IMG/VR virus record: IMGVR_UViG_3300021255_000003 | DNA length: 35,428 bases | Source of the DNA: a virus | Strand: one strand, 5' to 3' | The notes under the pieces: model-generated | What the model was told of the DNA's origin: nothing | Seen by the model: only the letters and a program-made list of their open reading frames with translations | The model's database searches: none | Part shown: one piece after another, positions 3,077 through 28,694 of the stretch | Layout: each line of letters begins with the position of its first letter | How positions within the stretch are numbered: the stretch's first letter is position 1 | Program-made: the position numbers and the translations under genes

Positions 3077-3784
3077 ATGGATTTTGAGGTAGATGAAAAT
3101 TTAGATTATCAGTTAAATAAAATTGCTTCAATAGTTATAAAAGAAAAAAGGATAAAAAAAGGATATAGTTTAGATGATGTTATAAATAAATTAGATAATA
3201 TAATTACAAAACAATCCTTATATAGATATGAAAATAATGAAGCAAGAATGAAAAATAGAATTTTCAAAAAAATATGTTTAGCACTTAATGAAGATCCAAA
3301 TGAAATTTGGAATGAAATTAATAATAGGTTTTTGAATACTCTATCATACGATAATGCTGATGTGATTGATATTGATAGCGATGTTATTAAAATCCCAGTA
3401 CTCGGTATTATTAAAGCAGGAATACCTATTGAAGCACAGGAAGAAATAATTGACTATGTTGAAATACCTAAAAAATGGACTTTAGGTGGTAAAAAATTCT
3501 ATGGATTAAAAATTAGTGGTGATAGCATGTATCCCAAATATCAAGAAGATGACATAGTTATATTTGAACAAAACGAAGATAAAGAACAATATAACAATAA
3601 AGACTGTGCTGTTATGGTTAATGGTGATGACGCAACATTTAAACAAGTTTTATTAAACGAACAAGGTTTAGTATTAAGGCCTTATAACAATGCTTATGAT
3701 ATTATGATGTATAGTAATGATGATATAGAAAAGTTACCTATTAAAATAGTAGGTATTGCTAGAGAGAAAAGAACTAAATTGTAG
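3077..3784 (+). CDS. CI-like repressor: XRE HTH plus LexA/S24 autopeptidase domain
   Basis: N-terminal HTH (KKGYSLDDVINKL). GDSMYP serine motif with FKQV lysine about 40 aa downstream. Confidence 0.85.
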   Translation: MDFEVDENLDYQLNKIASIVIKEKRIKKGYSLDDVINKLDNIITKQSLYRYENNEARMKNRIFKKICLALNEDPNEIWNEINNRFLNTLSYDNADVIDIDSDVIKIPVLGIIKAGIPIEAQEEIIDYVEIPKKWTLGGKKFYGLKISGDSMYPKYQEDDIVIFEQNEDKEQYNNKDCAVMVNGDDATFKQVLLNEQGLVLRPYNNAYDIMMYSNDDIEKLPIKIVGIAREKRTKL

Positions 3785-3793
3785 GAGGTTAAA

Positions 3794-4063
3794 ATGAAAA
3801 TAGGATTTAGAAAACCAAATATAAAAAGAGCTATAAAAGCAAGAACTACTGGTAGAATTAAAAGAAGTATGAAGAAAGCAACTAATCCTTTCTATGGTAA
3901 AAAAGGTATGGGCTTTGTAAAAAATCCTAAGAAAGCAATTTATAATAAAGCATATAAGAAGACTACTGTAGGATTATCTTCTGAGGCATGGATACATATT
4001 ATTCTATTTATATTCACAGCAGGAATAGGAAATATTATTTATTTAATATATAAAAAGAAATAA
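3794..4063 (+). CDS. Basic protein with C-terminal TM anchor, expressed from the lysogeny operon
   Basis: Track ORF. ARTTGRIKR...YGKKGMGFVKNPKKAIYNKAY motif followed by TM WIHIILFIFTAGIGNIIYLIY. Confidence 0.6.
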   Translation: MKIGFRKPNIKRAIKARTTGRIKRSMKKATNPFYGKKGMGFVKNPKKAIYNKAYKKTTVGLSSEAWIHIILFIFTAGIGNIIYLIYKKK

Positions 4064-4151
4064 AAAGTATTTTGTGAATTTAATAATAATGGTTAAAAAT
4101 ATGCTAGTACAGGTATTTTTAATATAAAAAAGTAGTAAAGGAGGTGTATTT

Positions 4152-4604
4152 GTGAAAAAGTTAATTATATTGTTGTCTTGTTTAATTGTTGTCGTTACAT
4201 TAACAGCTTGTTCTGAAAAAAATACTACAAAATCAGGTGAAACTAATAATAGTAGTAATGAAACAAAAACAGTTGAACCATTAAATCTATATGGTGAATG
4301 GAAACAAACTAACTCAGAAAGTGATGAAGACTATCAAGAAGCAACAATTAGTGAAGATGGTACAATAACTATTAATTGGGTTACTGAAGATACAAAATCT
4401 TTATACTGGGCTGGAAGTTTTGAAGCACCAACAACCGAAACAAAATCTTATTCTTGGACTTCAAATAATGATACTTCAAAGACAGAAGAAGCTATGTTAG
4501 CTTCAAGTGACGCAACAAAAAATTTTAAATATGAAAATGGTATTTTAAGTTATGAAGCCTCTGCTATGGGTGTAACTAAAACAATAAAAATGGAAAAAAA
4601 ATAA
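4152..4604 (+). CDS. Lipoprotein (candidate superinfection-exclusion or surface moron)
   Basis: Signal peptide with lipobox LTAC-S. SD AGGAGG, GTG start. Confidence 0.7.
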   Translation: MKKLIILLSCLIVVVTLTACSEKNTTKSGETNNSSNETKTVEPLNLYGEWKQTNSESDEDYQEATISEDGTITINWVTEDTKSLYWAGSFEAPTTETKSYSWTSNNDTSKTEEAMLASSDATKNFKYENGILSYEASAMGVTKTIKMEKK

Positions 4605-4634
4605 AAAAAAGACTAACCGCTGCAACGATTAGTC
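4603..4634 (-). terminator. Terminator-like hairpin (GACTAA..TTAGTC) with its U-tract on the minus strand only
   Basis: A8 run at 4603-4610 precedes the hairpin on the plus strand. The orientation would block transcription entering the lysogeny operon from the right. Confidence 0.35.
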
Positions 4635-4638
4635 AAAG

Positions 4639-4689
4639 GTACATAAAAAATTATATTTATCTCACAACAGACAAATCTTTTTTATGTAC
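4639..4689. other. 51-bp element: perfect 12-bp inverted repeat GTACATAAAAAA-N27-TTTTTTATGTAC (attP candidate 1)
   Basis: Read directly. Lies 52 bp upstream of the serine integrase start. Confidence 0.35.
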
Positions 4690-4740
4690 TTCAATTTTAC
4701 TATATTTTTTTAAAAATGTAAATATTGGAGGTAATTAATT

Positions 4741-6186
4741 ATGAATGAAAATTTTTTAGATTTTGATAGTCTATATAATGACTACTATTTAAAATCAAAT
4801 GAATATTATACTAAATGTGCTTGTTATATAAGAGTATCTACTGACGATCAAGTTGAATACTCTCCTACTTCACAATTAAAGCTATTATTAAAATATGCTT
4901 TAGATAATGATTTATTTATAGATAAAAAATATATATTCCACGATGATGGAATAAGTGGTACAAATACAAAGAATAGAGATTCATTTTTAAATATGATAGC
5001 TACTGCTAAATCTAAGCCTAAACCTTTTGAAAAGATAATTGTCTATGATTTTAGTAGATTTGCTAGGAATAAAGAAGAATCAGTAATGTATAAAACATTA
5101 TTAAGAAAAAAACTAAAGATAGATGTTATTAGCATAACCCAACCTCTTACTGAAGGTAAAGAAAGAGTTATATTAGAATCAATGTATGAAGCTATGGACG
5201 AATACTACTCTCTTAACCTATCTGAAAATGTTAGGCGTGGAAAACGTGAAAAAGTTGAACGTGGTGAACATTCAAGCTATGCCCCTTTTGGTTATACTCT
5301 GGTAGATAAAAAACTCGTCATACACGAAGAAAATGCCAAATTAGTTAAGTCTATTTATGATATGTTTATTAATACTGAAAATATTAAGCATATTTGTAAC
5401 ACTTTAAACGATTTAGGTATTAAATCAACGCGTGGTAAGTTATGGGGAAGAAAAACTATAACTTTGATATTAAAAAACAAAACTTATGCTGGATATGTAA
5501 AAAACAGAGATAAATACTATAAAGGTATTCACGAACCTATAATTGCTGAAGAGAAATTTGAAAAAGTACAAAAGATATGGCAATATAGAGATGAACATTT
5601 TAAGAAATGTAAGGATCAGGTTCAACATAACCATTGGTTACGTGGAATATTAAAATGTGGTGAATGTGGATATGGTATGTATTATTTTAAAAGAAAAGAT
5701 AGAGATTATGCTATATTTAATTGTGGAGGTTATACACATAATAGATGTTCTTCTCATTATATTAAAGTTACTGATGTAGAAAATGCTATAATCGAACAAA
5801 TTAAAAATGATTTTACTAATAAAATTGACATTAACATAACTACTAATAATAATGATTCTGAATACAAAATAGCACTATCTAATTTAAAATCTATAGAGAA
5901 TAAACTTGTTAGGATTAAAGAAGCTTATGTTAATGGAATTGATACATTAGAAGAATACAAAGAAAATAAATCTAAACTACAAAATCAATTGGAGGTTGCA
6001 AACAAAAAGATTAAAGAATCACAAAAACCATCTAAAGAAGTTATCTATAAAAAATGTGAACAGGCATATAAGATATTAAGTGATCCAAAAGCTGAAAAGA
6101 ACTTAAAATCAGAAATATCACACAATTTATTTGAAAAAATAACTTATTACAAAGAAAGCAATACCCTTGCTATTACTTATAAATAA
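4741..6186 (+). CDS. int: Large serine recombinase (phage integrase)
   Basis: N-terminal YIRVSTDDQ catalytic motif, resolvase domain, recombinase domain, Cys-rich zinc ribbon (CGECGYGMYY...CGGYTHNRC) and C-terminal coiled coil. Confidence 0.9.
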   Translation: MNENFLDFDSLYNDYYLKSNEYYTKCACYIRVSTDDQVEYSPTSQLKLLLKYALDNDLFIDKKYIFHDDGISGTNTKNRDSFLNMIATAKSKPKPFEKIIVYDFSRFARNKEESVMYKTLLRKKLKIDVISITQPLTEGKERVILESMYEAMDEYYSLNLSENVRRGKREKVERGEHSSYAPFGYTLVDKKLVIHEENAKLVKSIYDMFINTENIKHICNTLNDLGIKSTRGKLWGRKTITLILKNKTYAGYVKNRDKYYKGIHEPIIAEEKFEKVQKIWQYRDEHFKKCKDQVQHNHWLRGILKCGECGYGMYYFKRKDRDYAIFNCGGYTHNRCSSHYIKVTDVENAIIEQIKNDFTNKIDINITTNNNDSEYKIALSNLKSIENKLVRIKEAYVNGIDTLEEYKENKSKLQNQLEVANKKIKESQKPSKEVIYKKCEQAYKILSDPKAEKNLKSEISHNLFEKITYYKESNTLAITYK

Positions 6187-14850: not shown

Positions 14851-16338
14851 CTACTGTATAAAAGGACTATTTAATGGACTATTAAGCACATTGTCACTTA
14901 TTGGTGTAACTTCTGTTATTGTTAGATTATCCCATATAATATTAGCTGTTTGTTCTATATCAACATTACGAGTTATATATTCTCCACTCGATATGTTACC
15001 TTCACTTTTTCTTCTTTGATTGTCAAAATAATTAATTTCATTGTTTAAATTGAAAGTACTGGATAATTCATATTCGTAATTAATCAAACTAAATTCTCCA
15101 GCTTGTTTTATGTAAGTAGTTTTTTTCTTGACTAAATATTCTTTTTTTAAGTCATCTAGAGGAGCATTAAAAAAGGTTTTTGAACCTAATGTTAAAAAAT
15201 TGCTTGAGCTATTTATTTTTAATACAATTTCGGGATTGCTATATGTTTTTATGTAAGATTGTGCTACTTTATTAAGTTCATCTGCGTCCAAAATATCATC
15301 TCTGTTCTCATATCTTGTTATGGTTCCTTTTCTTTGTGTTTGATTATTTATTCTTAATATTTCAGAATTATTGATAATTAATTCTCTTCCTTTAATCAAT
15401 GGAGTATAATTAATAATAATTTGTGTACCTGCTGTATAAGAATCATTTTCATTATTTTCAAATGTATTTTTTCCTGCTTCATAATAAAAATCAAACTCTA
15501 TTCCAATTTCTTTATCTGCTTCTGTTCCTATTGTTTTTTCAATACCATTCACAGTAATGCTATTAATAACTCCTATATTACTTGAAGTAGAAAATGTTTT
15601 ATCATAACCATTAGCTATTATTGTTTCCACATAATCAACATTTCCATATACTTGACTACTCTTTATTATTTGTTTATTTCTATAATCATTAGTTGAATAC
15701 TCATACTTAATGTCATTTATTTTGTTTCTCTTAAAATAATCAGCAGTATATTCTAAGTTGATATTTTCCATTAAATAGTCAACATCATAAAAATCAATTG
15801 CTATTGTATTTTCATCAATTAATCTAGTAAACCAAACTGATTGAGATATTTCACTTAAATATTCAAATACATCGTATGGTGTTTTATCAAGTGTAGAATA
15901 AGCACCAATTATTGATGTTGTATCCTTTATATTGATATTTCCTATTACAAACCCATAACTAGATATTGAATCAATTACTTGCTCTATTGCTTCAGGTATC
16001 GTTTTGTTGTTTATAACATAATCTAATGTATCTGATTCACTTAAAAGAGTTGAATAATCTAATATTTGTAAACTACAATAATGTGGTTTTCTTGGATTTA
16101 ATACCATATTGCCACTATTTTTTACTATTCCAGCAAATACTAGTTCATCGTTGTCATATATTAAACATTTTGAATAATCTTTTGGAAAATAGAAATCGGT
16201 TAATAATTTGCTAGTTCCTTTCCATCTTTTAGGATATACTTTATCTAAAATAACTGAAGAAGGGTTTTTCAACTCTTCTTCAATTTTATAAGAACTATCG
16301 CAAATCACTTCTTCATTATCTATGAATATTTTATTCAC
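14851..16338 (-). CDS. Distal tail protein (Dit / siphovirus tail component)
   Basis: Immediately follows the TMP, with GTG overlapping the TMP stop. Size and position are typical. Confidence 0.65.
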   Translation of the reverse strand: MNKIFIDNEEVICDSSYKIEEELKNPSSVILDKVYPKRWKGTSKLLTDFYFPKDYSKCLIYDNDELVFAGIVKNSGNMVLNPRKPHYCSLQILDYSTLLSESDTLDYVINNKTIPEAIEQVIDSISSYGFVIGNINIKDTTSIIGAYSTLDKTPYDVFEYLSEISQSVWFTRLIDENTIAIDFYDVDYLMENINLEYTADYFKRNKINDIKYEYSTNDYRNKQIIKSSQVYGNVDYVETIIANGYDKTFSTSSNIGVINSITVNGIEKTIGTEADKEIGIEFDFYYEAGKNTFENNENDSYTAGTQIIINYTPLIKGRELIINNSEILRINNQTQRKGTITRYENRDDILDADELNKVAQSYIKTYSNPEIVLKINSSSNFLTLGSKTFFNAPLDDLKKEYLVKKKTTYIKQAGEFSLINYEYELSSTFNLNNEINYFDNQRRKSEGNISSGEYITRNVDIEQTANIIWDNLTITEVTPISDNVLNSPLNSPFIQ

Positions 16339-18212
16339 TATTTACCACCACCATAGTTAAATGAATTTTTGGTACCACCTGAAAATACTTTGATGTCATT
16401 AACAAAGGCTCTACCGAATTTATCTACATCCATATCAGCTTCTACATTTACATATATTGGTTGATTATTAGAAATATTTGGTGTTAGATTACCATACATA
16501 TTAGATACATTTACAGAACCATTTTTTAAGAAATCTAGGCCTATAGTATCTTCTATAGTCTTATGAAGTTCTTTTTCGTTTTCTTCAAATCCTTTTTCTA
16601 ATCCTAACATATTCATTTCTCCAACCCAATAAAATTCAGTTGATGGAGAATGTACTCCAAATATACTTTTAACCTTATTCATAATAGATTTGCCTATACC
16701 TGCTACTTTGTTTAATAACCATTGTTTGGCATTGGCAATACCATTCCATAAACCTTGGATAAGATTCTTACCTATATTTTCTATTCCACTTAATCCACTT
16801 CTTATTTTTGTTTTTACATTATTAGGAATACCTTTTACATTATTAAGTAACCAATTAACATTATTTTTAATACCATTCCATAAGCCTTTTATAGCATTAA
16901 TTCCTATCTCTAACCACATTCTAGGCATTGATTTCCAATAATTCATTATTGATTTGATTATTGTAGGAAGATATGCTAATAAGGTAGGAAGTGCTTGTAT
17001 TAAGCCTTGCATTATTCCTATAAGAAGTTGATATCCAGCTTGTATAAATAATGGTAAATTATCTATTAAAACAGGTATCATTTGTAGAATAGCGTCCACT
17101 ATTAATGGTATTAAAGTTGGCATTTCCTTAGCTAGTGCTTGAACTATCATAATACTTGCTTTTATCAAAGCTTGTAATAATTGTGGTAGTATTTTTACTA
17201 TACCTGTAAAAGCTTGTACTATTCCATTCATTAATACTGGTAATAGTGCTGGTAATGCTTGTACTAAACCATTTATTAAATCTATAGCTCCTTTTATTAT
17301 TACTGGTAATAATTTTTGCAATAATGGTGGTAATTCAGGAATTATTCCATTAACCAATCCTATTATTCCTTCAACTATTTTAGGAGCCATCTCTTCAATA
17401 GATTTTACTACAATTTTACTAAAACTCATTAAACTATCTATTACATCTTCTATGCTTCCTGCACCACTTAAAAAATTTGATATAGATGCTTTTAATGTAG
17501 TAAATGAACCAGCAAATGTTTCGTTTTCTTTAGCGTAGTTTCCTGCGTATTTAGATGTTTTTTCTAAAAACATTTGCATAGTAAGTTCTACTTTTTCAGC
17601 ATTTGTCATTTCACTAGTGCTCTTTTTTATACCTTTTGATAAAGCATAAGCATTAAGTGTTGTATCATTCATTGCAACACCTAAGTTATCCATCATCGTA
17701 AAGTTACCTTTTGCTGCTCCTGCAATACTTTCCATTGCTGCGTTAACATCTATTCCCATTACGGAAGCTACATCAGCAGCTCTTTGCATTGCGTCAGTAG
17801 ATAGGCTCATTGATTTTTCTACAGTTAATCCAGCACCTTGCATTAATGAACCCATTTTATTAGCAGTAGCTAAATAATCATTTTGTGAAAGACCCATTTT
17901 TTTGAATGCTTCAGTACCTTTTTTTTGTACTGTATCAGCAAACTTTTCAAAAACAGCTTCACTACCACCTAATTGTTGTTCTAATTCTCCAGCCATGCTA
18001 ACAGATTTCATTACTAATCCGCCTAATGCGGTACTTGCTGCACCTACACCTACAGCTAGGCCTTTGAATACAGTTGCACCTACAGATTTAATTTTATCTA
18101 AATGACCAGGTGTTTTTTTAGCTTCTTCATTTAGGTTTTTCATCCCTTTTTCAGAAGCATTACTATCCGTAGTGACTTTTAATCTTACTTCTGCATCATT
18201 CTTATTTATCAC
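16338..18212 (-). CDS. Tape measure protein
   Basis: 624 aa, Ala/Gly/Leu-rich helical with hydrophobic central repeats. Follows the chaperone genes. The start is ambiguous: GTG at 18212 or AAG at 18203. Confidence 0.85.
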   Translation of the reverse strand: MINKNDAEVRLKVTTDSNASEKGMKNLNEEAKKTPGHLDKIKSVGATVFKGLAVGVGAASTALGGLVMKSVSMAGELEQQLGGSEAVFEKFADTVQKKGTEAFKKMGLSQNDYLATANKMGSLMQGAGLTVEKSMSLSTDAMQRAADVASVMGIDVNAAMESIAGAAKGNFTMMDNLGVAMNDTTLNAYALSKGIKKSTSEMTNAEKVELTMQMFLEKTSKYAGNYAKENETFAGSFTTLKASISNFLSGAGSIEDVIDSLMSFSKIVVKSIEEMAPKIVEGIIGLVNGIIPELPPLLQKLLPVIIKGAIDLINGLVQALPALLPVLMNGIVQAFTGIVKILPQLLQALIKASIMIVQALAKEMPTLIPLIVDAILQMIPVLIDNLPLFIQAGYQLLIGIMQGLIQALPTLLAYLPTIIKSIMNYWKSMPRMWLEIGINAIKGLWNGIKNNVNWLLNNVKGIPNNVKTKIRSGLSGIENIGKNLIQGLWNGIANAKQWLLNKVAGIGKSIMNKVKSIFGVHSPSTEFYWVGEMNMLGLEKGFEENEKELHKTIEDTIGLDFLKNGSVNVSNMYGNLTPNISNNQPIYVNVEADMDVDKFGRAFVNDIKVFSGGTKNSFNYGGGK

Positions 18213-18684
18213 CTACCTTTTTTTCTAAATAGCCCCACATTTTTTCAAAAGCATTGGTATTTTGAATAATTGGTAGACTATACTTGTTTTTCATTTTCAT
18301 CATAAATCTATGTTTTTGTTCTTCTTGTGTTTTTATAGAACTAGAAGGTTTAGTATATGTTCTGTAATATAAAACTTTTGAAATAGTGGAATTGTCATCT
18401 AACATAAAGCCTTCTAGTAATGAATCAAATTCCCACCAGTCTATATCTTCTTTATTTAAGTTAAGTCCGAACTTCCAAAAATCAACGAAATAGTATTTGT
18501 AATCATAATTTAAATCAAAGTTTCTTTCTTTTAATGCTTTTCCACCATTCTGTGGATTAAACAAATATTTAGAAATTTCATTTAAAATATATCTTTGATT
18601 TTCTTTAATATCTAAACCTAAAAGCTCTAATGCTCTTTCACACTTATAAGGATTATCTTCTTCAAATAACTTGAATATTTTCAT
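18202..18684 (-). CDS. Tail assembly chaperone (Gp15-like)
   Basis: Position between MTP and TMP. N-terminal pattern resembles the bacteriophage Gp15 family. Confidence 0.6.
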   Translation of the reverse strand: MKIFKLFEEDNPYKCERALELLGLDIKENQRYILNEISKYLFNPQNGGKALKERNFDLNYDYKYYFVDFWKFGLNLNKEDIDWWEFDSLLEGFMLDDNSTISKVLYYRTYTKPSSSIKTQEEQKHRFMMKMKNKYSLPIIQNTNAFEKMWGYLEKKVGDK

Positions 18685-18725
18685 TATCCTTTTAAAGGTA
18701 GGATAAAACTTATATATTTTACCAT

Positions 18726-19169
18726 CTATTTTAAGTTCCGTAAGTTGTTGATATTCTTCACAAGGTTGGTAATTTGAGTATTTACTGGTGATATTTGTTT
18801 GTTGATAAAAAAATTTAGAAAGTATCCTCTAATATTTTCTATCATTTCTTCAAATTTATATTCTCCTGCTAATTCTTTGAATTTGTCTTTATGTTCTTTG
18901 AAACAAATATCTATAAATCTCTCATCATTTTTTTCTATATTTTCCCCAATTTCTTGTTCTAGTTTTTCTTTTTCTTCAGCTGTTGCTTTTATATAATCAC
19001 TATATTTTTCTTTTCCTAAACTGAATAAAATGTTTTTTATTTCTAACAACTCACTCTCAGTTATTTGCATGGTAAATTCATATTTTACTTCTTCTTCTCC
19101 TTTTTCGTTGATGTTTGTTAATTGAATCAATTCCTCTATTTCATATTTTTTATTTGTTACTTTTAACAT
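18726..19169 (-). CDS. Tail assembly chaperone (acidic, G-position)
   Basis: Acidic 147-aa protein directly after the MTP terminator. SD GAAGGAG. Confidence 0.6.
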   Translation of the reverse strand: MLKVTNKKYEIEELIQLTNINEKGEEEVKYEFTMQITESELLEIKNILFSLGKEKYSDYIKATAEEKEKLEQEIGENIEKNDERFIDICFKEHKDKFKELAGEYKFEEMIENIRGYFLNFFINKQISPVNTQITNLVKNINNLRNLK

Positions 19170-19231: not shown

Positions 19232-19681
19232 TTATGGTGTTGGTGCTACGTAGTCTGTTTCTGCAAAAGTAGAATTATCATATATTTTTAAATCAAAATC
19301 CACTTGTAAAACTTCTTCTGAATTTGCTTCATAAGTTATATTACTTAATGTTGCTGTAAAATCAATTTGTTTTCCGTTAGTACCTTTAAGTAAATTAACA
19401 ATTCTTGTTTTTACTGTTGCCTCTTCACCTACTGCAAATTCTTTACTTAAGATGAATTGACATACAGCACTTGATTTTTTCATTTTTACTGAAGTAGACC
19501 ATGTTGGGTCTAATCCAGTTTTAACGTTGTTTGATAAGAAAGAATATAAATCTTGCCATGTATCAAGTGATTCTCCCTGATCATAACTTAAATTTAGATT
19601 TATTACTTCTTCGTACTGTGCAGTACTAGTTGAACTTATATCGAACAATAATTTAAATTTATTAATTGAACTTTCGTACTT
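19232..19681 (-). CDS. Major tail protein; proposed AAG start at 19681
   Basis: Assigned by position. The track start is a TTG at 19648 with no SD. SD GGAG (19694-19691) plus 9 nt leads to an in-frame AAG. Confidence 0.6.
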   Translation of the reverse strand, partial: KYESSINKFKLLFDISSTSTAQYEEVINLNLSYDQGESLDTWQDLYSFLSNNVKTGLDPTWSTSVKMKKSSAVCQFILSKEFAVGEEATVKTRIVNLLKGTNGKQIDFTATLSNITYEANSEEVLQVDFDLKIYDNSTFAETDYVAPTP

Positions 19682-19683
19682 TA

Positions 19684-20070
19684 TTAATCACTCCATTCCA
19701 CTCTTAAATTACAATTAATATTGTAATAAATTCTTTGATTTTCGTCTCTAAAAGCATAGTTAGGTGTATTACATCTCATAAATGTAATATGTGTGTTATT
19801 TAATGATAAATCATTATTAAAGTGTAATTGATTAAATATTGTGTCAGCTAATCTACGTGTTTCAGTATCATTAGTGGTTCCTCTTATTAGAATATAAAAT
19901 GGTATTTCACTATAAAGAATATGTTGAGGTATAGAACTTTGATTTGTTCCTTCACCTAATTGAATAGCACAACATAATTCATCATTTTGAGGTAAATCTG
20001 GACTATAACATTTGATATTTGTTTTTTGTATTTCTGTTCGTAACAAAGTTACTAACTCTACGATATTCAT
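19684..20070 (-). CDS. Head-tail joining protein (Minor_capsid_3-like / gp17 position)
   Basis: ATG at 20070 with SD AAGAAGGGA; the track start at 20100 lies inside the upstream gene. Confidence 0.65.
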   Translation of the reverse strand: MNIVELVTLLRTEIQKTNIKCYSPDLPQNDELCCAIQLGEGTNQSSIPQHILYSEIPFYILIRGTTNDTETRRLADTIFNQLHFNNDLSLNNTHITFMRCNTPNYAFRDENQRIYYNINCNLRVEWSD

Positions 20071-20071
20071 T

Positions 20072-20428
20072 TTATCCCTTCTTTGCTTCATTAATAGCAT
20101 TTACTAGCATTGTTTGATAATCCTTTTTGTATTTATTGAAAGTTTTTTCAAACCATCTAGGTTGAGCTTGTCTGTTGCCAGCTCCAGCTTTACCACCCTC
20201 GTAATATCTTCTTCTAACGTATGGGCTCCTTTCAATTACAAGTCCCTTTTCAAATTGTGAATGCATTTCACCAGACTGATACATCTGTCCTGTATCTCTA
20301 TAAGTAAATTCGTTAGAATCTTTATAAATTTGTTCTGCTATGGATAAAATAGCTTTTTCTTGAGCTTTTTTGACAACATCTTTTTCAACCCAATTAAGTG
20401 CTTTTTCTAAACTATCAAACTTTCTCAT
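20072..20428 (-). CDS. Head-tail joining protein (Minor_capsid_2 / HK97 gp10-like)
   Basis: Track ORF. ATGA overlap with the upstream stop. Family resemblance by eye. Confidence 0.65.
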   Translation of the reverse strand: MRKFDSLEKALNWVEKDVVKKAQEKAILSIAEQIYKDSNEFTYRDTGQMYQSGEMHSQFEKGLVIERSPYVRRRYYEGGKAGAGNRQAQPRWFEKTFNKYKKDYQTMLVNAINEAKKG

Positions 20429-20757
20429 TGTAATAATACCTCATAATGATGAGCATTTACAGAATCAGGATAAAGAGTGGAAGCTTCAACTATTTTATAT
20501 TCTTTGTTATTAAAGATAATTTTACTATTATTAATAGGAGCAGCGGTTAAGCCTAAAGAATTTACTAAATCATAAAACATTCTAGCCGTTGCTACTATTT
20601 CCCGTCCATTTCTTGTTATATTTAGTTTTAAATTATCTTCAATTTTTACAAATCTTAAATTAGTTGATTCTCCCCACTCATCACCTTCACCTGTATTTCC
20701 TAAATACTCTTTATAAACACAACTATGTGGTAGTAGTCTTTTTGGAATTGGTCTCTT
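20425..20757 (-). CDS. Head-closure protein (Minor_capsid_1-like); no canonical start, proposed AAG start at 20757
   Basis: Hand-translated 110 aa: (K/M)RPIPKRLLPHSCVYKEYLGNTGEGDEWGE...HHYEVLLQ. The frame opens after TAG at 20766-20764. The first ATG is 59 codons in. Absent from the ORF track. Confidence 0.6.
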   Translation of the reverse strand, partial: KRPIPKRLLPHSCVYKEYLGNTGEGDEWGESTNLRFVKIEDNLKLNITRNGREIVATARMFYDLVNSLGLTAAPINNSKIIFNNKEYKIVEASTLYPDSVNAHHYEVLLQ

Positions 20758-20872
20758 TTTTTTCTACCTTTTTCTCTGTATTTTCAATTACTTTCCATCC
20801 AGCCATTTCATACCATTTTAAAGCACCTTCTGTTACTTCTTTTGTAATTGCACCAATTTTTACCTTTACCAT
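20723..20872 (-). CDS. Small hypothetical protein (49 aa, MVKVKIGAITKEVTEGALKWYEMAGWKVIE...)
   Basis: SD GGAAGGTG plus 5 nt, then ATG. Overlaps the start of the head-closure gene in another frame. Confidence 0.5.
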   Translation of the reverse strand: MVKVKIGAITKEVTEGALKWYEMAGWKVIENTEKKVEKKETNSKKTTTT

Positions 20873-21257: not shown

Positions 21258-22103
21258 TTAAGCATTTTTTACTTTTACGATTACAGCTTCTGCATTAGTC
21301 AATACATCTGTATAAACCATACGGCCTTGTAAAGCACTTGCACCAATGTGAGAACCATCTTTTAAGTCATTAATAGTTGGCTCTACTTTCCATTCGTCAA
21401 TTGCTTGTGTCCAGTCTACACCATAAACTATATATTCAACATTCTTATCGTTTTTGTCTTTTTCTAAATCTTGTACGATTACATTAACACCGTTGATTTT
21501 TCCAACAACACCATTTCGTGCTAATTCAGCACCAATTTGTGAAGCGGTATTTGAATATTTTTCATCAGTTAATAGTAGTGTTTCAGTTGCATAGTCTATA
21601 GCTACATACATTCTGTTTTTATCAATACCCTTTTTAGCTAATATAGCTATATCTTTTACAATATTTGAATATACGTTTTCAGCAGTTGAATCTTCTTGTG
21701 TTGATGGTGTACCACCTAATAAAGCTTCAATAGCATCAGCTTCTAATGTTTTAGCTACTGAATATGCTCCACTTTCTAGTCTTTGTGCTACTAAATTATC
21801 TGGCACTGCTTGTGCTTCATATCCATCGATTAATTCATTAATTGCTTTATGATTATCAACTGGGATATTTTTATAACTAGTTGCACTTTGAGATAAAGAT
21901 GCACCATCTTTTACATCATAATCATTAATTGCTACATCAGTATTTCTTACTGGTACTTTTACAGCTCCAGCTACTGGACTTCCTTCATAGTCTCTTGAAA
22001 ATGTATTTCTTATTTTTAGACTTGGTCTCATTAACTTAACAATTGCATTAGCAAATCTTTCTTGTCTTTCATGAGTACCATTTGTTCCGATTGCGTTTGC
22101 CTT
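21258..22103 (-). CDS. Major capsid protein; proposed AAG start at 22103 (track ORF starts at ATG 22031)
   Basis: 24 sense codons (KANAIGTNGTHERQERFANAIVKL) lie upstream of the track ATG with no canonical start. SD AAAAGGAG sits 9 nt before AAG, which follows TGA TGA TAA. Confidence 0.7.
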   Translation of the reverse strand, partial: KANAIGTNGTHERQERFANAIVKLMRPSLKIRNTFSRDYEGSPVAGAVKVPVRNTDVAINDYDVKDGASLSQSATSYKNIPVDNHKAINELIDGYEAQAVPDNLVAQRLESGAYSVAKTLEADAIEALLGGTPSTQEDSTAENVYSNIVKDIAILAKKGIDKNRMYVAIDYATETLLLTDEKYSNTASQIGAELARNGVVGKINGVNVIVQDLEKDKNDKNVEYIVYGVDWTQAIDEWKVEPTINDLKDGSHIGASALQGRMVYTDVLTNAEAVIVKVKNA

Positions 22104-22953: not shown

Positions 22954-22968
22954 TAATAAAAAAAATTT

Positions 22969-23046
22969 AGGAGGTAGGACTCGCACTATCCCTACATCTC
23001 TTTTGACCCAAAGGGTGCGTGGACGCAAGATTTTTCCACCTCTCCT
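22969..23046 (-). ncRNA. 78-nt cloverleaf-shaped structured RNA candidate
   Basis: AGGAG/CUCCU closing stem, GUGGA/UCCAC arm, ACCC-UUU-GGGU arm, GUAGG/CCUAC arm containing GUGCGAGUCC (T-loop-like). Followed by AAA-U8. Confidence 0.35.
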
Positions 23047-23058
23047 GTAATTATTATA

Positions 23059-24719: not shown

Positions 24720-25031
24720 TTAATTAAAAAAATTTTTACAAACATCATGTATCATATCATGGCTTTTACTACTTAAATCACATAATATTTCTTCATTATA
24801 ATTTATTTCATCTGATAAATAAGACCAGATATAACAATGCATTAATTCGTGATACAAAGTTTCTTTTTGCTTTTCTTTTGATACTTCTTTATTGATTAAT
24901 ATTTGTTGAGTGCTTAATTTTGTTGCACCATAATAATAACTATTTTCATTATTATCATTAAATACTTTTTTTACTTCATCAGCTGTTGCATAATCAATTG
25001 TCCAATTGTAATTATTCATTTTGAAGTTCAT
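24720..25031 (-). CDS. Small HExxH metallopeptidase-like protein (103 aa)
   Basis: YHELMHCY motif. SD AAGGAG plus 7 nt, then ATG at 25031; the track start at 25058 lies inside the portal gene. Confidence 0.55.
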   Translation of the reverse strand: MNFKMNNYNWTIDYATADEVKKVFNDNNENSYYYGATKLSTQQILINKEVSKEKQKETLYHELMHCYIWSYLSDEINYNEEILCDLSSKSHDMIHDVCKNFFN

Positions 25032-26475
25032 TTGCATTCTCCTTATCACCCATACCATAGAAATCTATTCCTTCAGGTGTAATTATTTTATTATCTTCTT
25101 TTATTTTTTCTATCTCATCTGTTACTTCTGCTTCTTCATAATGTAAATATTTAGTCATGAACTTTTCTTTACTTATTAAACCAGCATTATATAGATTAAT
25201 TCCACGATTAATTAGTGCTTCCTCATCTTGTATAATACTATCATCAAATGTAATAGATATTTCTTTATACTTAATACCTTCCATTTCACATATAGTTGCT
25301 ATTAAATCATATAAAGCATTGTATATTGGAATTTGGTGTTGAGATTTAGTCCTAAATGTATCACTATTTTCACTAACTACTTCAGTAGCAGTTTTTAATC
25401 CATCTTTATCAAATGAATAAAAATCATTACCTAATCTTACACCAGCACTTAAGTATTTTAATTCAGTATTAATGGCTTCTATATATTCATTTCTTAGACT
25501 AAAGTCTATTTCTTTTACTGGTTGATTTTCCATTCCTTCTAGTGCTACATATATGTCATCAGAGGTATCAAAATAACTAGCATAAATGATATTGTTGTTA
25601 TCATCTACTCCTGTAGCTTTCTTTTTAACCGCACTTCTATCTACTAATATTCTTCTTCTACCACTTACATATTCGTGGTCAAATCCATCATATTTAATAT
25701 CTATTGCTTTAAATTTATCTAAATGATTAGCAAGTATTGATAATCCCATTGGGCTACCTGTATCAAAGTTATTTGCTATTGGTAATCTCCATACTTGGAA
25801 TCTTGGATGTTCTGTTTCTATTACTTCATCTTCTTCAATATCAGGATATAATGTAGAAACATCTATTGCTTTTCCTAATGTATTTTCACTTTTTGATTTA
25901 TATAATTCAGTTGCTTTTTTATATTCTCCATTATCATATTCATGATAAGTTAGTAATGTATAATATATTTTCTTATTTTCAGTACCTTCTACTGTTCGTG
26001 ATACTGTTATTATTCCATTTATATACGAATTAGTATATTTATATGGTAAAACAACATCTCCATCTATATAATCTACAATTGTTTTGTCATCCTTTTTATA
26101 TTCAACAGTAACCATCGTACCGTAGGCATATTCTTTTTCTAGAAATGGTAAAAAATTAGTACTAAAACTATTTTCTTTACTATCTAACACATCCCATAAC
26201 TTTTTAGTATTCTTTTTGTTGTCTAATTTTATTTCTGCTCTTTCACTCCATAATAGATTAGAAAAATCTTCACATATTTTCTTTGGCATATTTAAAGTTT
26301 TTCTTTCAACTAAACATTCCTTACCATCAACCAATTTAGCCTTATAGTAGTGAAAATCATTTACACTACCTCTGTAATATTGGTGACAAATTGCCATCAT
26401 ATCATATATAGTTCCTACTACTACGTTGATATTTTTTTTACTTAGTACTTGTTGAATATTATTGTATAGTTCCTT
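25012..26475 (-). CDS. Portal protein (SPP1 gp6-like); proposed AAG start at 26475 (track ORF starts at ATG 26400)
   Basis: The frame is open from TGA at 26505-26503. Strong SD AAAGGTGGTG plus 5 nt leads to AAG. No ATG/GTG/TTG for 25 codons. TAAAG overlap with the upstream stop. Confidence 0.75.
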   Translation of the reverse strand, partial: KELYNNIQQVLSKKNINVVVGTIYDMMAICHQYYRGSVNDFHYYKAKLVDGKECLVERKTLNMPKKICEDFSNLLWSERAEIKLDNKKNTKKLWDVLDSKENSFSTNFLPFLEKEYAYGTMVTVEYKKDDKTIVDYIDGDVVLPYKYTNSYINGIITVSRTVEGTENKKIYYTLLTYHEYDNGEYKKATELYKSKSENTLGKAIDVSTLYPDIEEDEVIETEHPRFQVWRLPIANNFDTGSPMGLSILANHLDKFKAIDIKYDGFDHEYVSGRRRILVDRSAVKKKATGVDDNNNIIYASYFDTSDDIYVALEGMENQPVKEIDFSLRNEYIEAINTELKYLSAGVRLGNDFYSFDKDGLKTATEVVSENSDTFRTKSQHQIPIYNALYDLIATICEMEGIKYKEISITFDDSIIQDEEALINRGINLYNAGLISKEKFMTKYLHYEEAEVTDEIEKIKEDNKIITPEGIDFYGMGDKENANELQNE

Positions 26476-26670: not shown

Positions 26671-28035
26671 TCACTCCTTTATACCTAATTTTCTTAAATT
26701 ATCTTTTACCCAATATTGGTATAAATCACAAGTATGATCTGCATAGTAATAACTTATATCATTTGAATAAGTGTTAAAGTATTCTTCTCCACCTGTAAAT
26801 TCCTTTTCATTTTTATCAGGTATAGGTTTACCCTTTTCAACACTACCTTCTAACCATTGATAATTTTCTATTTCTTTTTTTACTATTTTGTTATTATTGT
26901 TATTAATTATTCTTATTTTGCCTTTGCTTAAAAAAGTTATTGAATAATCTACTAATTCTTCTTTGTCTCTACCTTTATTTACAGGATTAAATCTCTTACC
27001 ATAATCCGAATATAATTGATTTCTTAATGCTCCTTCAGCACTATCTATTGTTTCTCTATCAAGACTAGTTTTATATTTTTTTAACATCGCTATTTCAAAA
27101 TTGAATATATCTTTGGATAATTCCGATGGTGCTCTCTTTTTTGATTTTTCGTGTGGACTATAGTAATAGGTGTCTAACCAATACCAATATCCATCACTTC
27201 CATAGCCGAAACATCCGCATGTGGTAGCACTTGTTTGATGACCACCATCAGCTGAAAAGTCCATATATAATATCCGTACGTTGTTTTTATCTATATAATC
27301 TTCTTCTACCCATTCAAATTGTTCAGGATTATATATCATTCCTTCTAATCCTATTACTTCACCTAAATATATCCATCTATATCTTTTAATATCAAATTGT
27401 TTTATTCTTTCAGCCTCTTCAATTGCGATTCTTCCTATCCATTCTACAGGAACAGTTCTATAGTCACTTAAAGAATATAAAACATTATCTTGTTTTTGTT
27501 TTTCAATAGCCCATTTATTAACCCAATGATATTTATTCTTTGGTGGATTATATGAATATAAAGCCATAAACCAATCATTATTTCCACGTGTAAATGTTGC
27601 TATAATTTGGTCTATATCTTCTGAATTTTTCCATCCTGTCAATTCTTCAAACCAAACTATTTTTATTAATTTGTTTTCATCAATTGTTCCTTTTACTGCT
27701 TCATAATCGTCTCCACCAGCAAAATATATTGTGTTTCCATTAGAAAAAAAAGTTATTTCCATTGGTGCTAATTTTGCTTTATAGTGTATGTTTTCAATTA
27801 ATCCTAATCTTCTGCAGGCTCTTTTAATTTCTTTGTATACTGATTTTCTTAAATCTACTTGGTGTTTTCTTAATACTACTGCAGAACAGTCATTTTCTTT
27901 TATGCAGTTGTATACTATCTTTAAAGAAATCATAGATGTTTTAGTTGAATTTCTTCCTCCTGCATATATCTGATGTGTTTTGTGACTTTTAAATGTTCTT
28001 CTAAAAGAAGGAGCTATTTGAGTACTAATCTTCAT
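26671..28035 (-). CDS. terL: Terminase large subunit (PBSX/Terminase_3 family)
   Basis: N-terminal ATPase pattern (YAGGRNSTKTS Walker A-like). Size and position fit. Confidence 0.9.
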   Translation of the reverse strand: MKISTQIAPSFRRTFKSHKTHQIYAGGRNSTKTSMISLKIVYNCIKENDCSAVVLRKHQVDLRKSVYKEIKRACRRLGLIENIHYKAKLAPMEITFFSNGNTIYFAGGDDYEAVKGTIDENKLIKIVWFEELTGWKNSEDIDQIIATFTRGNNDWFMALYSYNPPKNKYHWVNKWAIEKQKQDNVLYSLSDYRTVPVEWIGRIAIEEAERIKQFDIKRYRWIYLGEVIGLEGMIYNPEQFEWVEEDYIDKNNVRILYMDFSADGGHQTSATTCGCFGYGSDGYWYWLDTYYYSPHEKSKKRAPSELSKDIFNFEIAMLKKYKTSLDRETIDSAEGALRNQLYSDYGKRFNPVNKGRDKEELVDYSITFLSKGKIRIINNNNNKIVKKEIENYQWLEGSVEKGKPIPDKNEKEFTGGEEYFNTYSNDISYYYADHTCDLYQYWVKDNLRKLGIKE

Positions 28036-28417
28036 CTGCTTCAGGTAAATCGTCTATGATTTCAACTCTATTATTAACGGTGCCATCAAATTCTTGTTTA
28101 GTGCTAAATTCATCTTTGGCTTTTCTCTCTAAATACCATTTAGCCATTTCTTTGTCTCCTTTATCTAGAGCTTTATGAACAGCCATTCTTGCCTTTATTT
28201 TTTCGTATTCTTTTAGCATATTAATTCTCTCTAAAAATTCAGGGTATTCAGCTAAATATGCATAAAAAGTAGATTCACGAACATCGGCAAAAAAACACGC
28301 TTCACGATTAGTACACCCCATCATAAAAGCTTCTTCTAATTTTTGTAGTTCTTTTTCTCCTATTGCTCTTGGTCTACCTACTTGATTTCCATTATCTTTT
28401 TTCTTTTTTCTTTTCTT
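28025..28417 (-). CDS. terS: Terminase small subunit; start ambiguous (AAG at 28417 after SD GAAGGTGG, or GTG at 28426 inside the SD)
   Basis: Basic N-terminus plus HTH-like GRPRAIGEKELQKLEEAFMMGCTNREA. Overlaps the terL start. Confidence 0.75.
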   Translation of the reverse strand, partial: KKRKKKKDNGNQVGRPRAIGEKELQKLEEAFMMGCTNREACFFADVRESTFYAYLAEYPEFLERINMLKEYEKIKARMAVHKALDKGDKEMAKWYLERKAKDEFSTKQEFDGTVNNRVEIIDDLPEADED

Positions 28418-28440: not shown

Positions 28441-28514
28441 TGGTAGCGGATGTTGGATTTGCACCACTCCACAGGCTAAAGAGACCTGTATGCTACTATT
28501 ACACTACACCCGCG
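28441..28514 (-). tRNA. Initiator-tRNA-like gene with anticodon CUU (non-canonical T and D arms), encoded ACCA 3' end
   Basis: 5'-CGCGGGUGUAGUGUAAUAGUAGCAUACAGGUCUCUUUAGCCUGUGGAGUGGUGCAAAUCCAACAUCCGCUACCA-3'. 7 acceptor pairs plus a C1xU72 mismatch. Anticodon arm CAGGU-CUCUUUA-GCCUG. Hand-folded only. Confidence 0.5.
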
Positions 28515-28541
28515 ATAAATAAAACTGCCTAATATAGGCAG
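28515..28541 (-). terminator. Rho-independent terminator (CTGCCTA-TAT-TAGGCAG plus TTTTATTT)
   Basis: Perfect 7-bp stem. The U-tract ends at the first base of the tRNA-like gene. Confidence 0.7.
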
Positions 28542-28694
28542 CCCACTAAGAAAAACAATTGTTTATATTCCCTAATCCACATCAAGAATATTTGCCTTGC
28601 ACCAGTAAAGGATAGATATAGTTATTATTTAATTCTTTCTGCATTCTAATAAAGGAGGTGCGTTTTGAAAGAATACTATAGCAAGGTTCCCACT

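Follow-up and report, generated by a model that had tools for sequence, protein, structure and literature searches.

How the synthesis of a phage structural protein begins when its gene has no canonical start codon in the place where its relatives have one is the question raised by the stretch of DNA studied here, the 35,428-nucleotide IMG/VR virus record IMGVR_UViG_3300021255_000003 (in the following, the window). The gene concerned lies on the minus strand and encodes a head-closure protein (head-tail adaptor) of the Minor_capsid_1 family. The analysis presented below suggests that this gene very probably starts at AAG 20757-20755, which would be read by a phage-encoded initiator-like tRNA with the anticodon CUU, the two together forming a natural orthogonal initiation system. 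On a wider scale we are probably dealing with a natural reassignment of the start codon in a temperate siphovirus clade of uncultured low-G+C gut Bacilli and in at least one unrelated lineage, in which CUU or CCU would have replaced the initiator anticodon CAU, AAG or AGG would have become the start codon of five or six essential late genes, and the synthesis of virion proteins would depend on an initiator made by the phage.

The original prediction had described at this site a Minor_capsid_1-like gene without a canonical start, namely a 110-codon frame that ends in an ATGA overlap with the next gene and has its first ATG 59 codons downstream, and had placed the N-terminus of the family at AAG 20757-20755; its statements on the sequence hold, and profile matches, the N-termini of homologues and the substitution pattern agree with it. 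Translated by hand, the minus-strand frame AAA AAA AAG(20757-20755) AGA CCA ATT CCA yields KKKRPIPKRLLPH...HHYEVLLQ. The first ATG, GTG or TTG in this frame is the ATG at 20580, 59 codons past the AAG, and the stop TGA (20427-20425) lies within the ATGA that also holds the ATG of gene 20072-20428. A search of the translation against Pfam PF10665 (Minor_capsid_1), which had been proposed as a check, returned 46.7 bits at a cut-off of 25 (E=4.4e-12) with an alignment spanning profile positions 1-103 of 105, and PHROG 793 ('head-tail adaptor') was matched with E=1.3e-20 over positions 3-110 of 113. Nearly all of the homologues listed are 111 amino acids (aa) long with the N-termini MIKPIPKRLLPH (MIKPIP) or MIRPIP, and one homologue of 110 aa starts MKPIP, so that the N-terminus of the family falls at the AAG of the window. 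The gene is located between the head-tail connector and tail-terminator genes of a siphovirus morphogenesis operon, its neighbours match PHROG 541 (head-tail adaptor), PHROG 556 and PF12691 (tail terminator), and the gene order around it is identical in the related locus L004/L041. A megablast search of the locus against isolated phages gave no matches. Between the window and its relative L001 the ratio of nonsynonymous to synonymous substitution rates (dN/dS) was 0.13 at a dS of 0.59, compared with 0.11 for the neighbouring gene, and such a value between two lineages that both lack a start codon implies expression of the head-closure gene in both. By these comparisons the gene is real and under selection.

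Around the proposed start the minus strand reads ...GAGAAAAAGG TAG AAA AAA AAG AGA CCA ATT CCA..., with a TAG at 20766-20764 preceding the head-closure frame and a run of eight A (A8) at 20763-20756. An element resembling a Shine-Dalgarno (SD) sequence, which the original prediction had noted upstream of the AAG, was found 8 nucleotides (nt) before it (AAGGT); its duplex with the 3' end of the 16S rRNA has a calculated energy of -7.0 kcal/mol, and its place is that of the SD in orthologues that start with ATG. The arrangement in these ATG-start relatives is AAGGA + 8 nt + ATG ATA AAA CCN, that of the window AAGGT + 8 nt + AAG AGA CCA and that of L001 AAGGA + 8 nt + AAG AAA CCA, and compared with the MKPIP form the window start differs by a single T-to-A change. 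The AAG is kept in the window and in the loci L005, L014, L001 and L002. The A8 run is not unusual in itself, as the window, with a G+C content of 27%, contains 17 A/T runs of eight; what goes beyond chance is the absence of a start codon combined with an AAG at the orthologous start position. Overlapping this start in another frame is a separate small open reading frame (ORF) of 49 aa (20872-20723), for which a normal SD and an ATG had been claimed, and this also proved correct: its SD is GGAAGGTG, and the head-closure frame is +1 relative to it.

Related loci were used to judge whether the gene is intact. L005 and L014, two further independent assemblies of 97-98% identity, carry the identical TAG-A8-G, and in L001 and L002, which represent an 88%-identity relative from two samples (...AAGGAAAATAAAAAAGAAACCA...), there is no ATG and the same AAG follows a run of only six A (AATAAAAAAG), so that the run length is not conserved among the relatives without a start codon. 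The small ORF (41-43 aa) and the head-closure gene exist as separate genes in about 25 related loci, where they overlap by about 20 nt, with the head-closure gene in the +1 frame relative to the small ORF and starting at its own ATG; the small gene is also called separately in L001, L002 and L004. Since the frame relation in the window is that of the intact relatives, no insertion or deletion needs to be assumed. When the hypothetical 148-aa fusion of both frames was used as a query, 174 homologues were found, and none of the 120 homologues listed covers the N-terminal 39 residues of the fusion, the coverage being 70-74%. The alternative named in the original prediction, a fusion with the 49-aa ORF through a run of seven A or a frameshift, is not supported, given the A8 in three assemblies, the relative with six A and the same AAG, and the 25 or so relatives with separate genes. 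Judged against these relatives, the head-closure gene is intact and represents neither a homopolymer error nor a fusion nor a pseudogene.

The head-closure gene does not stand alone. Six AAG starts are proposed in the window (28417, 26475, 22103, 20757, 19681 and 18203), and all other genes of the window have a canonical start with an SD. The five further genes encode the small terminase, the portal, the major capsid, the major tail and the tape-measure protein (Table 1). For the major capsid gene the ATG chosen by the ORF finder (22031) has no SD, and its frame is open for 24 codons further upstream; the 24 residues thereby added, (K)ANAIGTNGTHERQERFANAIVKL, are homologous to the true N-terminus MANPIGTNGSHNRKETYANQILKI of the L004 orthologue, which starts with GGAG + 9 nt + ATG GCT AAT, and the L013 orthologue has AGG GCA AAT at this place. 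For the major tail gene, AAG stands at the orthologous start in about 20 loci, whereas L013 has AGG and L004 has ATG. Among the fetched loci nearly all capsid and major-tail orthologues show an SD + 8 nt + AAG, often right after TAA or TGA. Likewise, the small terminase orthologues have AAG in L035, L036 and L046, AGG in L040 and GTG in L041, those of the portal have TAA AAG in L034, L035 and L036, TAA AGG in L040 and GTG in L041, and those of the tape measure have AAG in L032, L034, L035, L036, L037 and L039, AGG in L040 and ATG in L041. Many relatives have an in-frame stop codon immediately upstream of these late starts. A role of AAAGG as a further SD, serving an ATC or ATT that follows it, was considered and rejected, as that codon is TTA or GTT in some orthologues. 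Neither the five further late genes with AAG nor the CUU tRNA, in which we see the cause, had been noticed in the original prediction.

Table 1. Coordinates in the window of the head-closure start region, the initiator-like tRNA and the late genes with proposed AAG starts.
Feature	Position	Strand	Remarks
Tape measure gene	16338..18203	-	AAG 18203-18201; AAGGTAGGTGATAAAT AAG; SD duplex -15.7 kcal/mol
Major tail gene	19232..19681	-	AAG 19681-19679; GGAG + 9 nt + AAG TAC GAA
Head-closure / head-tail adaptor gene (Minor_capsid_1)	20425..20757	-	110 codons from AAG to TGA; PF10665, PHROG 793
Small gene (49 aa)	20723..20872	-	ATG start; motif KWYEMAGWK; 3' end overlaps the head-closure start
AAG, proposed head-closure initiation codon	20755..20757	-	8 nt past AAGGT, spacing as for ATG after AAGGA in relatives
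A8 run	20756..20763	-	Made up of the two preceding codons and the AA of AAG
SD-like element AAAAAGGT	20766..20773	-	Last base is the T of the in-frame TAG
Major capsid gene	21258..22103	-	AAG 22103-22101; GGAG + 8 nt + AAG GCA AAC; TAA directly upstream in frame
Portal gene	25012..26475	-	AAG 26475-26473; AAAGGTGGTGATTTA AAG
Small terminase gene	28025..28417	-	AAG 28417-28415; GAAGGTGGTATCA AAG
Initiator-like tRNA, anticodon CUU (reads AAG)	28441..28514	-	Head of the late operon; the small terminase gene follows directly
Terminator-like hairpin	28522..28544	-	Immediately upstream of the tRNA

The tRNA at the head of the late operon was not found by ARAGORN in the window; the Rfam tRNA model matches it at 28445-28513 (minus strand) with 38.6 bits. 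Its cloverleaf is 100% paired with three compensatory pairs, and the anticodon loop C-U-CUU-U-A gives the anticodon CUU, which is cognate to AAG. At the top of the acceptor helix a C stands opposite a U, followed by A73 and an encoded CCA, a mismatch at 1:72 that presupposes that the 5' C is kept at the RNase P cut. Corresponding tRNAs in L036, L040, L035, L043, L046 and L054 have a C opposite an A at the top, then A and CCA. The window belongs with L035, L043 and L046 to a subtype whose acceptor helix has gained a pair and whose T stem has one pair less, an 8/4 split, with a C opposite U or A and then A-CCA, and in this subtype the 11:24 pair is U11:A24. It is A11:U24 in L036, L040 and L054 (GAGC/GCUY, as in Escherichia coli), and the L036 and L040 tRNAs combine it with C1xA72, A73, an encoded CCA, G2:C71 and C3:G70. 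The L036 tRNA (CGCAGGG...CCCUGCAACCA) has the anticodon CUU and is typed by ARAGORN as tRNA-Lys(ctt), and the L040 tRNA (CGCAGAG...UUCCUAU...CUCUGCAACCA) has the anticodon CCU and is typed as tRNA-Arg(cct). The sole E. coli match of these two tRNAs is the tRNA-Met at amiC/argA, with 74% identity over the full length, and their best phage matches are tRNA-Met; no tRNA-Lys was found among their sequence matches. The amiC/argA tRNA-Met is that of the metZWV initiator locus. None of the tRNAs has the CAU of tRNA-fMet: the anticodon is CUU in the window, L035, L036, L043 and L046 and CCU in L040 and L054. The CUU tRNA thus appears to be initiator-like in its build, yet not a tRNA-fMet.

An origin for these tRNAs is suggested by a pattern scan of IMG/VR for the odd T-loop and acceptor end, which yielded 82 stretches, nearly all of them initiator-type with the anticodon CAU. 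About 70 phage contigs (IMG/VR loci L051-L126) carry such CAU tRNAs with a ...GCAACCA end (pattern ...GCNACCA), a T-loop UGCAAWU (G at 55) and a D-loop without the GG pair, and together they look like a phage-specific clade of initiator tRNAs, from which, to judge by the shared features, the CUU and CCU forms evidently derive. A tRNA in L088 (around 3100-3175, plus strand) has the same T-loop and acceptor end and an anticodon loop UU-UAA-GA with the anticodon UAA; it could be another non-CAU variant, reading UUA/UUG, or an ordinary elongator.

Anticodon and start codon were found to vary together. In the window and L032 the tRNA is CUU and the small terminase, portal, capsid, tail, tape-measure and head-closure genes all start with AAG; in L035 and L036, also with a CUU tRNA, the first five of these genes have AAG and the head-closure gene has ATG. 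L013, refetched as L040, is the AGG phage: its tRNA is CCU, the same five genes start with AGG and the head-closure gene with ATG. L004, refetched as L041, is the phage with canonical starts only, having GTG in the small terminase and portal genes and ATG in the capsid, tail, tape-measure and head-closure genes, and no tRNA was detected across 20 kb of it, even at E<=0.5. Both the CCU in the AGG phage L040 and the absence of such a tRNA from L041 had been predicted before looking, and both predictions held. This three-way covariation of CUU with AAG, CCU with AGG and no tRNA with ATG or GTG is a direct observation, as are the sequences, the positions of the AAG codons relative to the orthologous starts and SD elements, and the features of the tRNAs. 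On this comparison the head-closure gene is a sixth gene that has moved to the AAG regime in one sublineage, a move that would be sensible only if AAG is a working start in these phages.

Similar results were obtained for an unrelated lineage (L054, L061 and L090), in which the same type of tRNA has the anticodon CCU. The major capsid protein of L054 matches the major head protein of phiCD38-2 with E=2e-55; its gene shows AAAGGAGG + 9 nt + AGG GCA and lacks any canonical start over 52 codons. In the alignment this AGG falls no more than 1-2 residues from where the capsid proteins of phiCD38-2 and Montmirail are annotated to begin. Two further ORFs of L054 have an SD followed by AGG. This lineage provides an independent replication of the pairing of CCU with AGG.

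The expression of the tRNA, the amino acid that it carries, its formylation and use of initiation factor 2 (IF2), its efficiency and its biological purpose may be pictured as follows. The window tRNA would descend from a phage-type initiator tRNA-fMet, of which A73, the encoded CCA, an acceptor helix unpaired at its top and two out of three G:C pairs in the anticodon stem have been kept. Transcription of the late operon would co-transcribe the tRNA, which would in this way be made. Methionyl-tRNA synthetase (MetRS) requires CAU, and lysyl-tRNA synthetase (LysRS) recognises the anticodon and A73. Because of these requirements the CUU tRNA, with its A73, would probably be charged with lysine and the CCU form with arginine. 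The charged tRNA would then, with IF2, enter the P site of the 30S subunit on an AAG about 8 nt past the SD of the head-closure gene, and the same route would start the small terminase, portal, major capsid, major tail and tape-measure genes; its purpose may be to make the synthesis of late structural proteins depend on a factor supplied by the phage. Engineered initiator tRNAs with an altered anticodon do initiate at cognate non-AUG codons, and the middle codon-anticodon base pair must be cognate in initiation (PMC11744186), so that an initiator with CAU should not read AAG and one with CUU should.

Several observations weigh against this interpretation. The SD before the head-closure AAG is weak (-7 kcal/mol). 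Lysine-charged initiator mutants are poor formylation substrates in E. coli. The three consecutive G:C pairs of the anticodon stem (29:41, 30:40 and 31:39) are not present, since all CUU forms and the CCU form of L040 have two G:C pairs and then U:G at 31:39. The window tRNA moreover represents the less initiator-like subtype, with C opposite U rather than A, U:A at 11:24, the 8/4 helices and a 5' end that depends on the RNase P cut. The evidence for the pairing of AGG with CCU comes from two lineages, and the sequences of L001 and L002 are too short to reveal whether the tRNA is present. L033, a relative with AAG starts and without the tRNA, is uninformative on this point because it is a truncated prophage lying beside a Cas9 locus. 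In L033 (78-6385) the prophage is cut inside its Phage_min_cap2 gene and abuts a type II-A CRISPR-Cas system (the C-terminal part of Cas9, Cas1, Cas2 and Csn2) with an apparent array, and the junction could be either a host junction or a chimeric assembly.

Among the other explanations, one is that the tRNA-fMet of the host starts weakly at AAG as a near-cognate codon, the phage CUU tRNA being an ordinary elongator tRNA-Lys that supplements the host supply. The ARAGORN types of the L036 and L040 tRNAs would fit such a role, phage tRNAs often supplement codon usage, and a head-closure protein is needed in few copies. However, AAG also serves the capsid and tail genes, which encode the most abundant virion proteins, and initiation tolerates no mismatch between codon and anticodon at the middle base (PMC11744186). 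The tRNAs with C1xA72, A73 and A11:U24 resemble tRNA-fMet and not tRNA-Lys, and AGG starts occur exactly where the anticodon is CCU, in two lineages, and phages without the tRNA use ATG or GTG. We therefore consider this explanation improbable.

About as little credit can be given, and if anything slightly less, to a programmed +1/-2 frameshift or transcriptional slippage in the A8 run, by which the 49-aa ORF would be fused to the head-closure frame to give a 148-aa protein (...VEKK-RPIP...). The head-closure frame is indeed +1 to the small ORF, AAA AAA G would allow tRNA-Lys to re-pair on AAG, and the out-of-frame ATG ACT AAA G TAC that some of the major-tail orthologues contain would be read as MTK|YESS, similar to MPKYDSS. 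Against this stand the run of only six A in L001 and L002, the separation of the two genes in the same frame relation in about 25 relatives, and the lack of an N-terminal extension or contiguous fusion in the 120 listed of the 174 homologues. In addition, other genes with AAG starts have no upstream ORF or start codon (TAA AAG in the portal and capsid genes, GAT TTA AAA G in the tail gene of L026), and a slip on AAA-G cannot account for the AGG at the same five positions in L040. Since a start codon in the donor frame is missing from many of the sites and L013/L040 has AGG, a +1 slip on AAA-G is not a general mechanism.

It is very unlikely that translation begins instead at a nearby weak codon, such as the ATT at 20748-20746 within the P-I-P motif, which would shorten the protein by 3 residues. 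Weak starts at ATT and ATA are known from bacteria and a purine-rich AAAGAG lies 4 nt upstream, but this codon alternates between ATT and ATA as an ordinary isoleucine codon in ATG-start relatives as well, the spacing is short and the SD poor, and the five other genes and the covariation with the tRNA would be left unexplained. A sequencing or assembly error in the homopolymer, or a dead gene in a decaying prophage, is hardly credible at all, for although homopolymers are error-prone, the A8 is present in three independent and non-identical assemblies (the window, L005 and L014), the frame relation matches that of intact relatives, dN/dS is low (0.13 at a dS of 0.59) and the neighbouring genes are all intact.

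Changes in the meaning of stop codons were considered as well. ORFs of the window end in TAA (30/46), TAG (10/46) and TGA (6/46), and its long ORFs are uninterrupted under translation table 11. Recoding or readthrough of TAG from an upstream TTG was rejected, as TAG ends 10 of the 46 ORFs and a TAA also lies in frame upstream, and so was genetic code 4, which cannot remove the upstream TAA and TAG and for which the long ORFs, intact under table 11, give no occasion. Stop-codon recoding of the kind found in phages was not seen in the window: its long ORFs have no in-frame stops, and all three stop codons terminate ORFs.

The wider context is that of a temperate phage, as indicated by a lysogeny module on the plus strand (3077-6186) with an S24/HTH repressor (3077-3784) and a large serine recombinase (4741-6186). 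Relatives were found in metagenome-assembled genomes of uncultured Bacilli, namely Candidatus Onthousia, Candidatus Coprosoma and Acholeplasmatales. Some further features of the window were noted in passing. A skipping-rope RNA motif (Rfam RF02924; 55.3 bits at a cut-off of 36.7) lies at 22966-23049 on the minus strand between the Phage_min_cap2 and scaffold genes, and the equivalent gap in L034 is occupied by a normal tRNA-Pro(UGG). The minus-strand frames 18726-19169 and 18202-18828, of which the second shares about 100 nt with the first and extends without a stop for 48 codons upstream of its ATG, look like a tail assembly chaperone pair and would fit the usual G/GT programmed frameshift. 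Between the portal gene and that of minor capsid protein 2 there is an odd gene, a 112-aa ORF (24720-25058, minus strand) that shares 47 nt with the 3' end of the portal gene and has a weak Peptidase_M78/IrrE-like match (E=5e-5). For the tail terminator (19684-20100, minus strand) the ATG of the ORF finder (20100) has no SD, and the ATG at 20070 (AAGAAGGGATAAA ATG) matches the start in L005 (128 aa).

To our knowledge, all natural initiator tRNAs described so far carry CAU, and it is this tRNA that reads non-AUG starts, as near-cognates. A full-text literature search, in which subscription journals were covered in part, found no natural precedent for such a start-codon system. Natural near-cognate starts (GUG, UUG, and AUU in infC) likewise place a non-AUG codon after an SD, but they depart from AUG in the first or third base and are read without a special tRNA, whereas AAG and AGG depart from it in the middle base and are found together with a tRNA that matches them. 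The closest parallel is provided by engineered orthogonal initiator tRNAs, anticodon mutants of E. coli tRNA-fMet such as that with amber CUA (PMC11744186), in which the initiator body is kept, the anticodon is changed, and a cognate non-AUG start follows the SD; as with the phage tRNA, the new anticodon is expected to decide which amino acid is charged. These are laboratory constructs, whereas the phage system would be natural and would involve five or six essential late genes and two anticodons (CUU and CCU), and the body of the phage tRNA differs from theirs in its T-loop UGCAAWU, the absence of G18 and, in the window type, the 8/4 helices. Phage initiator-type tRNA-Met with CAU shares the tRNA body and reads AUG, in contrast to the CUU and CCU forms paired here with AAG and AGG.

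Programmed frameshifts are familiar from phage structural genes, for example the G/GT shift of tail chaperones and the +1 shifts in Listeria phage PSA and in SPP1 gp17.1*. The head-closure locus resembles them in its overlap with an ORF of another frame and in its A-rich run within a morphogenesis operon; it differs in that there are no fused homologues among those listed, the run length is not conserved and other AAG-start genes have no upstream ORF. In work from 2022 attributed to Borges and colleagues, phage suppressor tRNAs are said to recode TAG or TGA, with late genes the most affected. There, too, a phage tRNA alters the reading of one codon, late structural genes are concerned and a gating of late synthesis is plausible; that recoding, however, acts on elongation at stops, whereas the system of the window would change the initiation codon and leave TAG, TAA and TGA as ordinary stops.

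For the annotation of these phages the consequences are immediate, since gene callers truncate the genes for capsid, portal and tail and overlook that for head closure, and tRNA annotators miss the key tRNA or label it as a tRNA for lysine or arginine. If our interpretation is true, ready-made parts for orthogonal initiation would be available to synthetic biology. It would moreover be shown that the start of the genetic code can be reassigned in nature, and these phages would possess a translational switch for their late genes that parallels stop-codon recoding.

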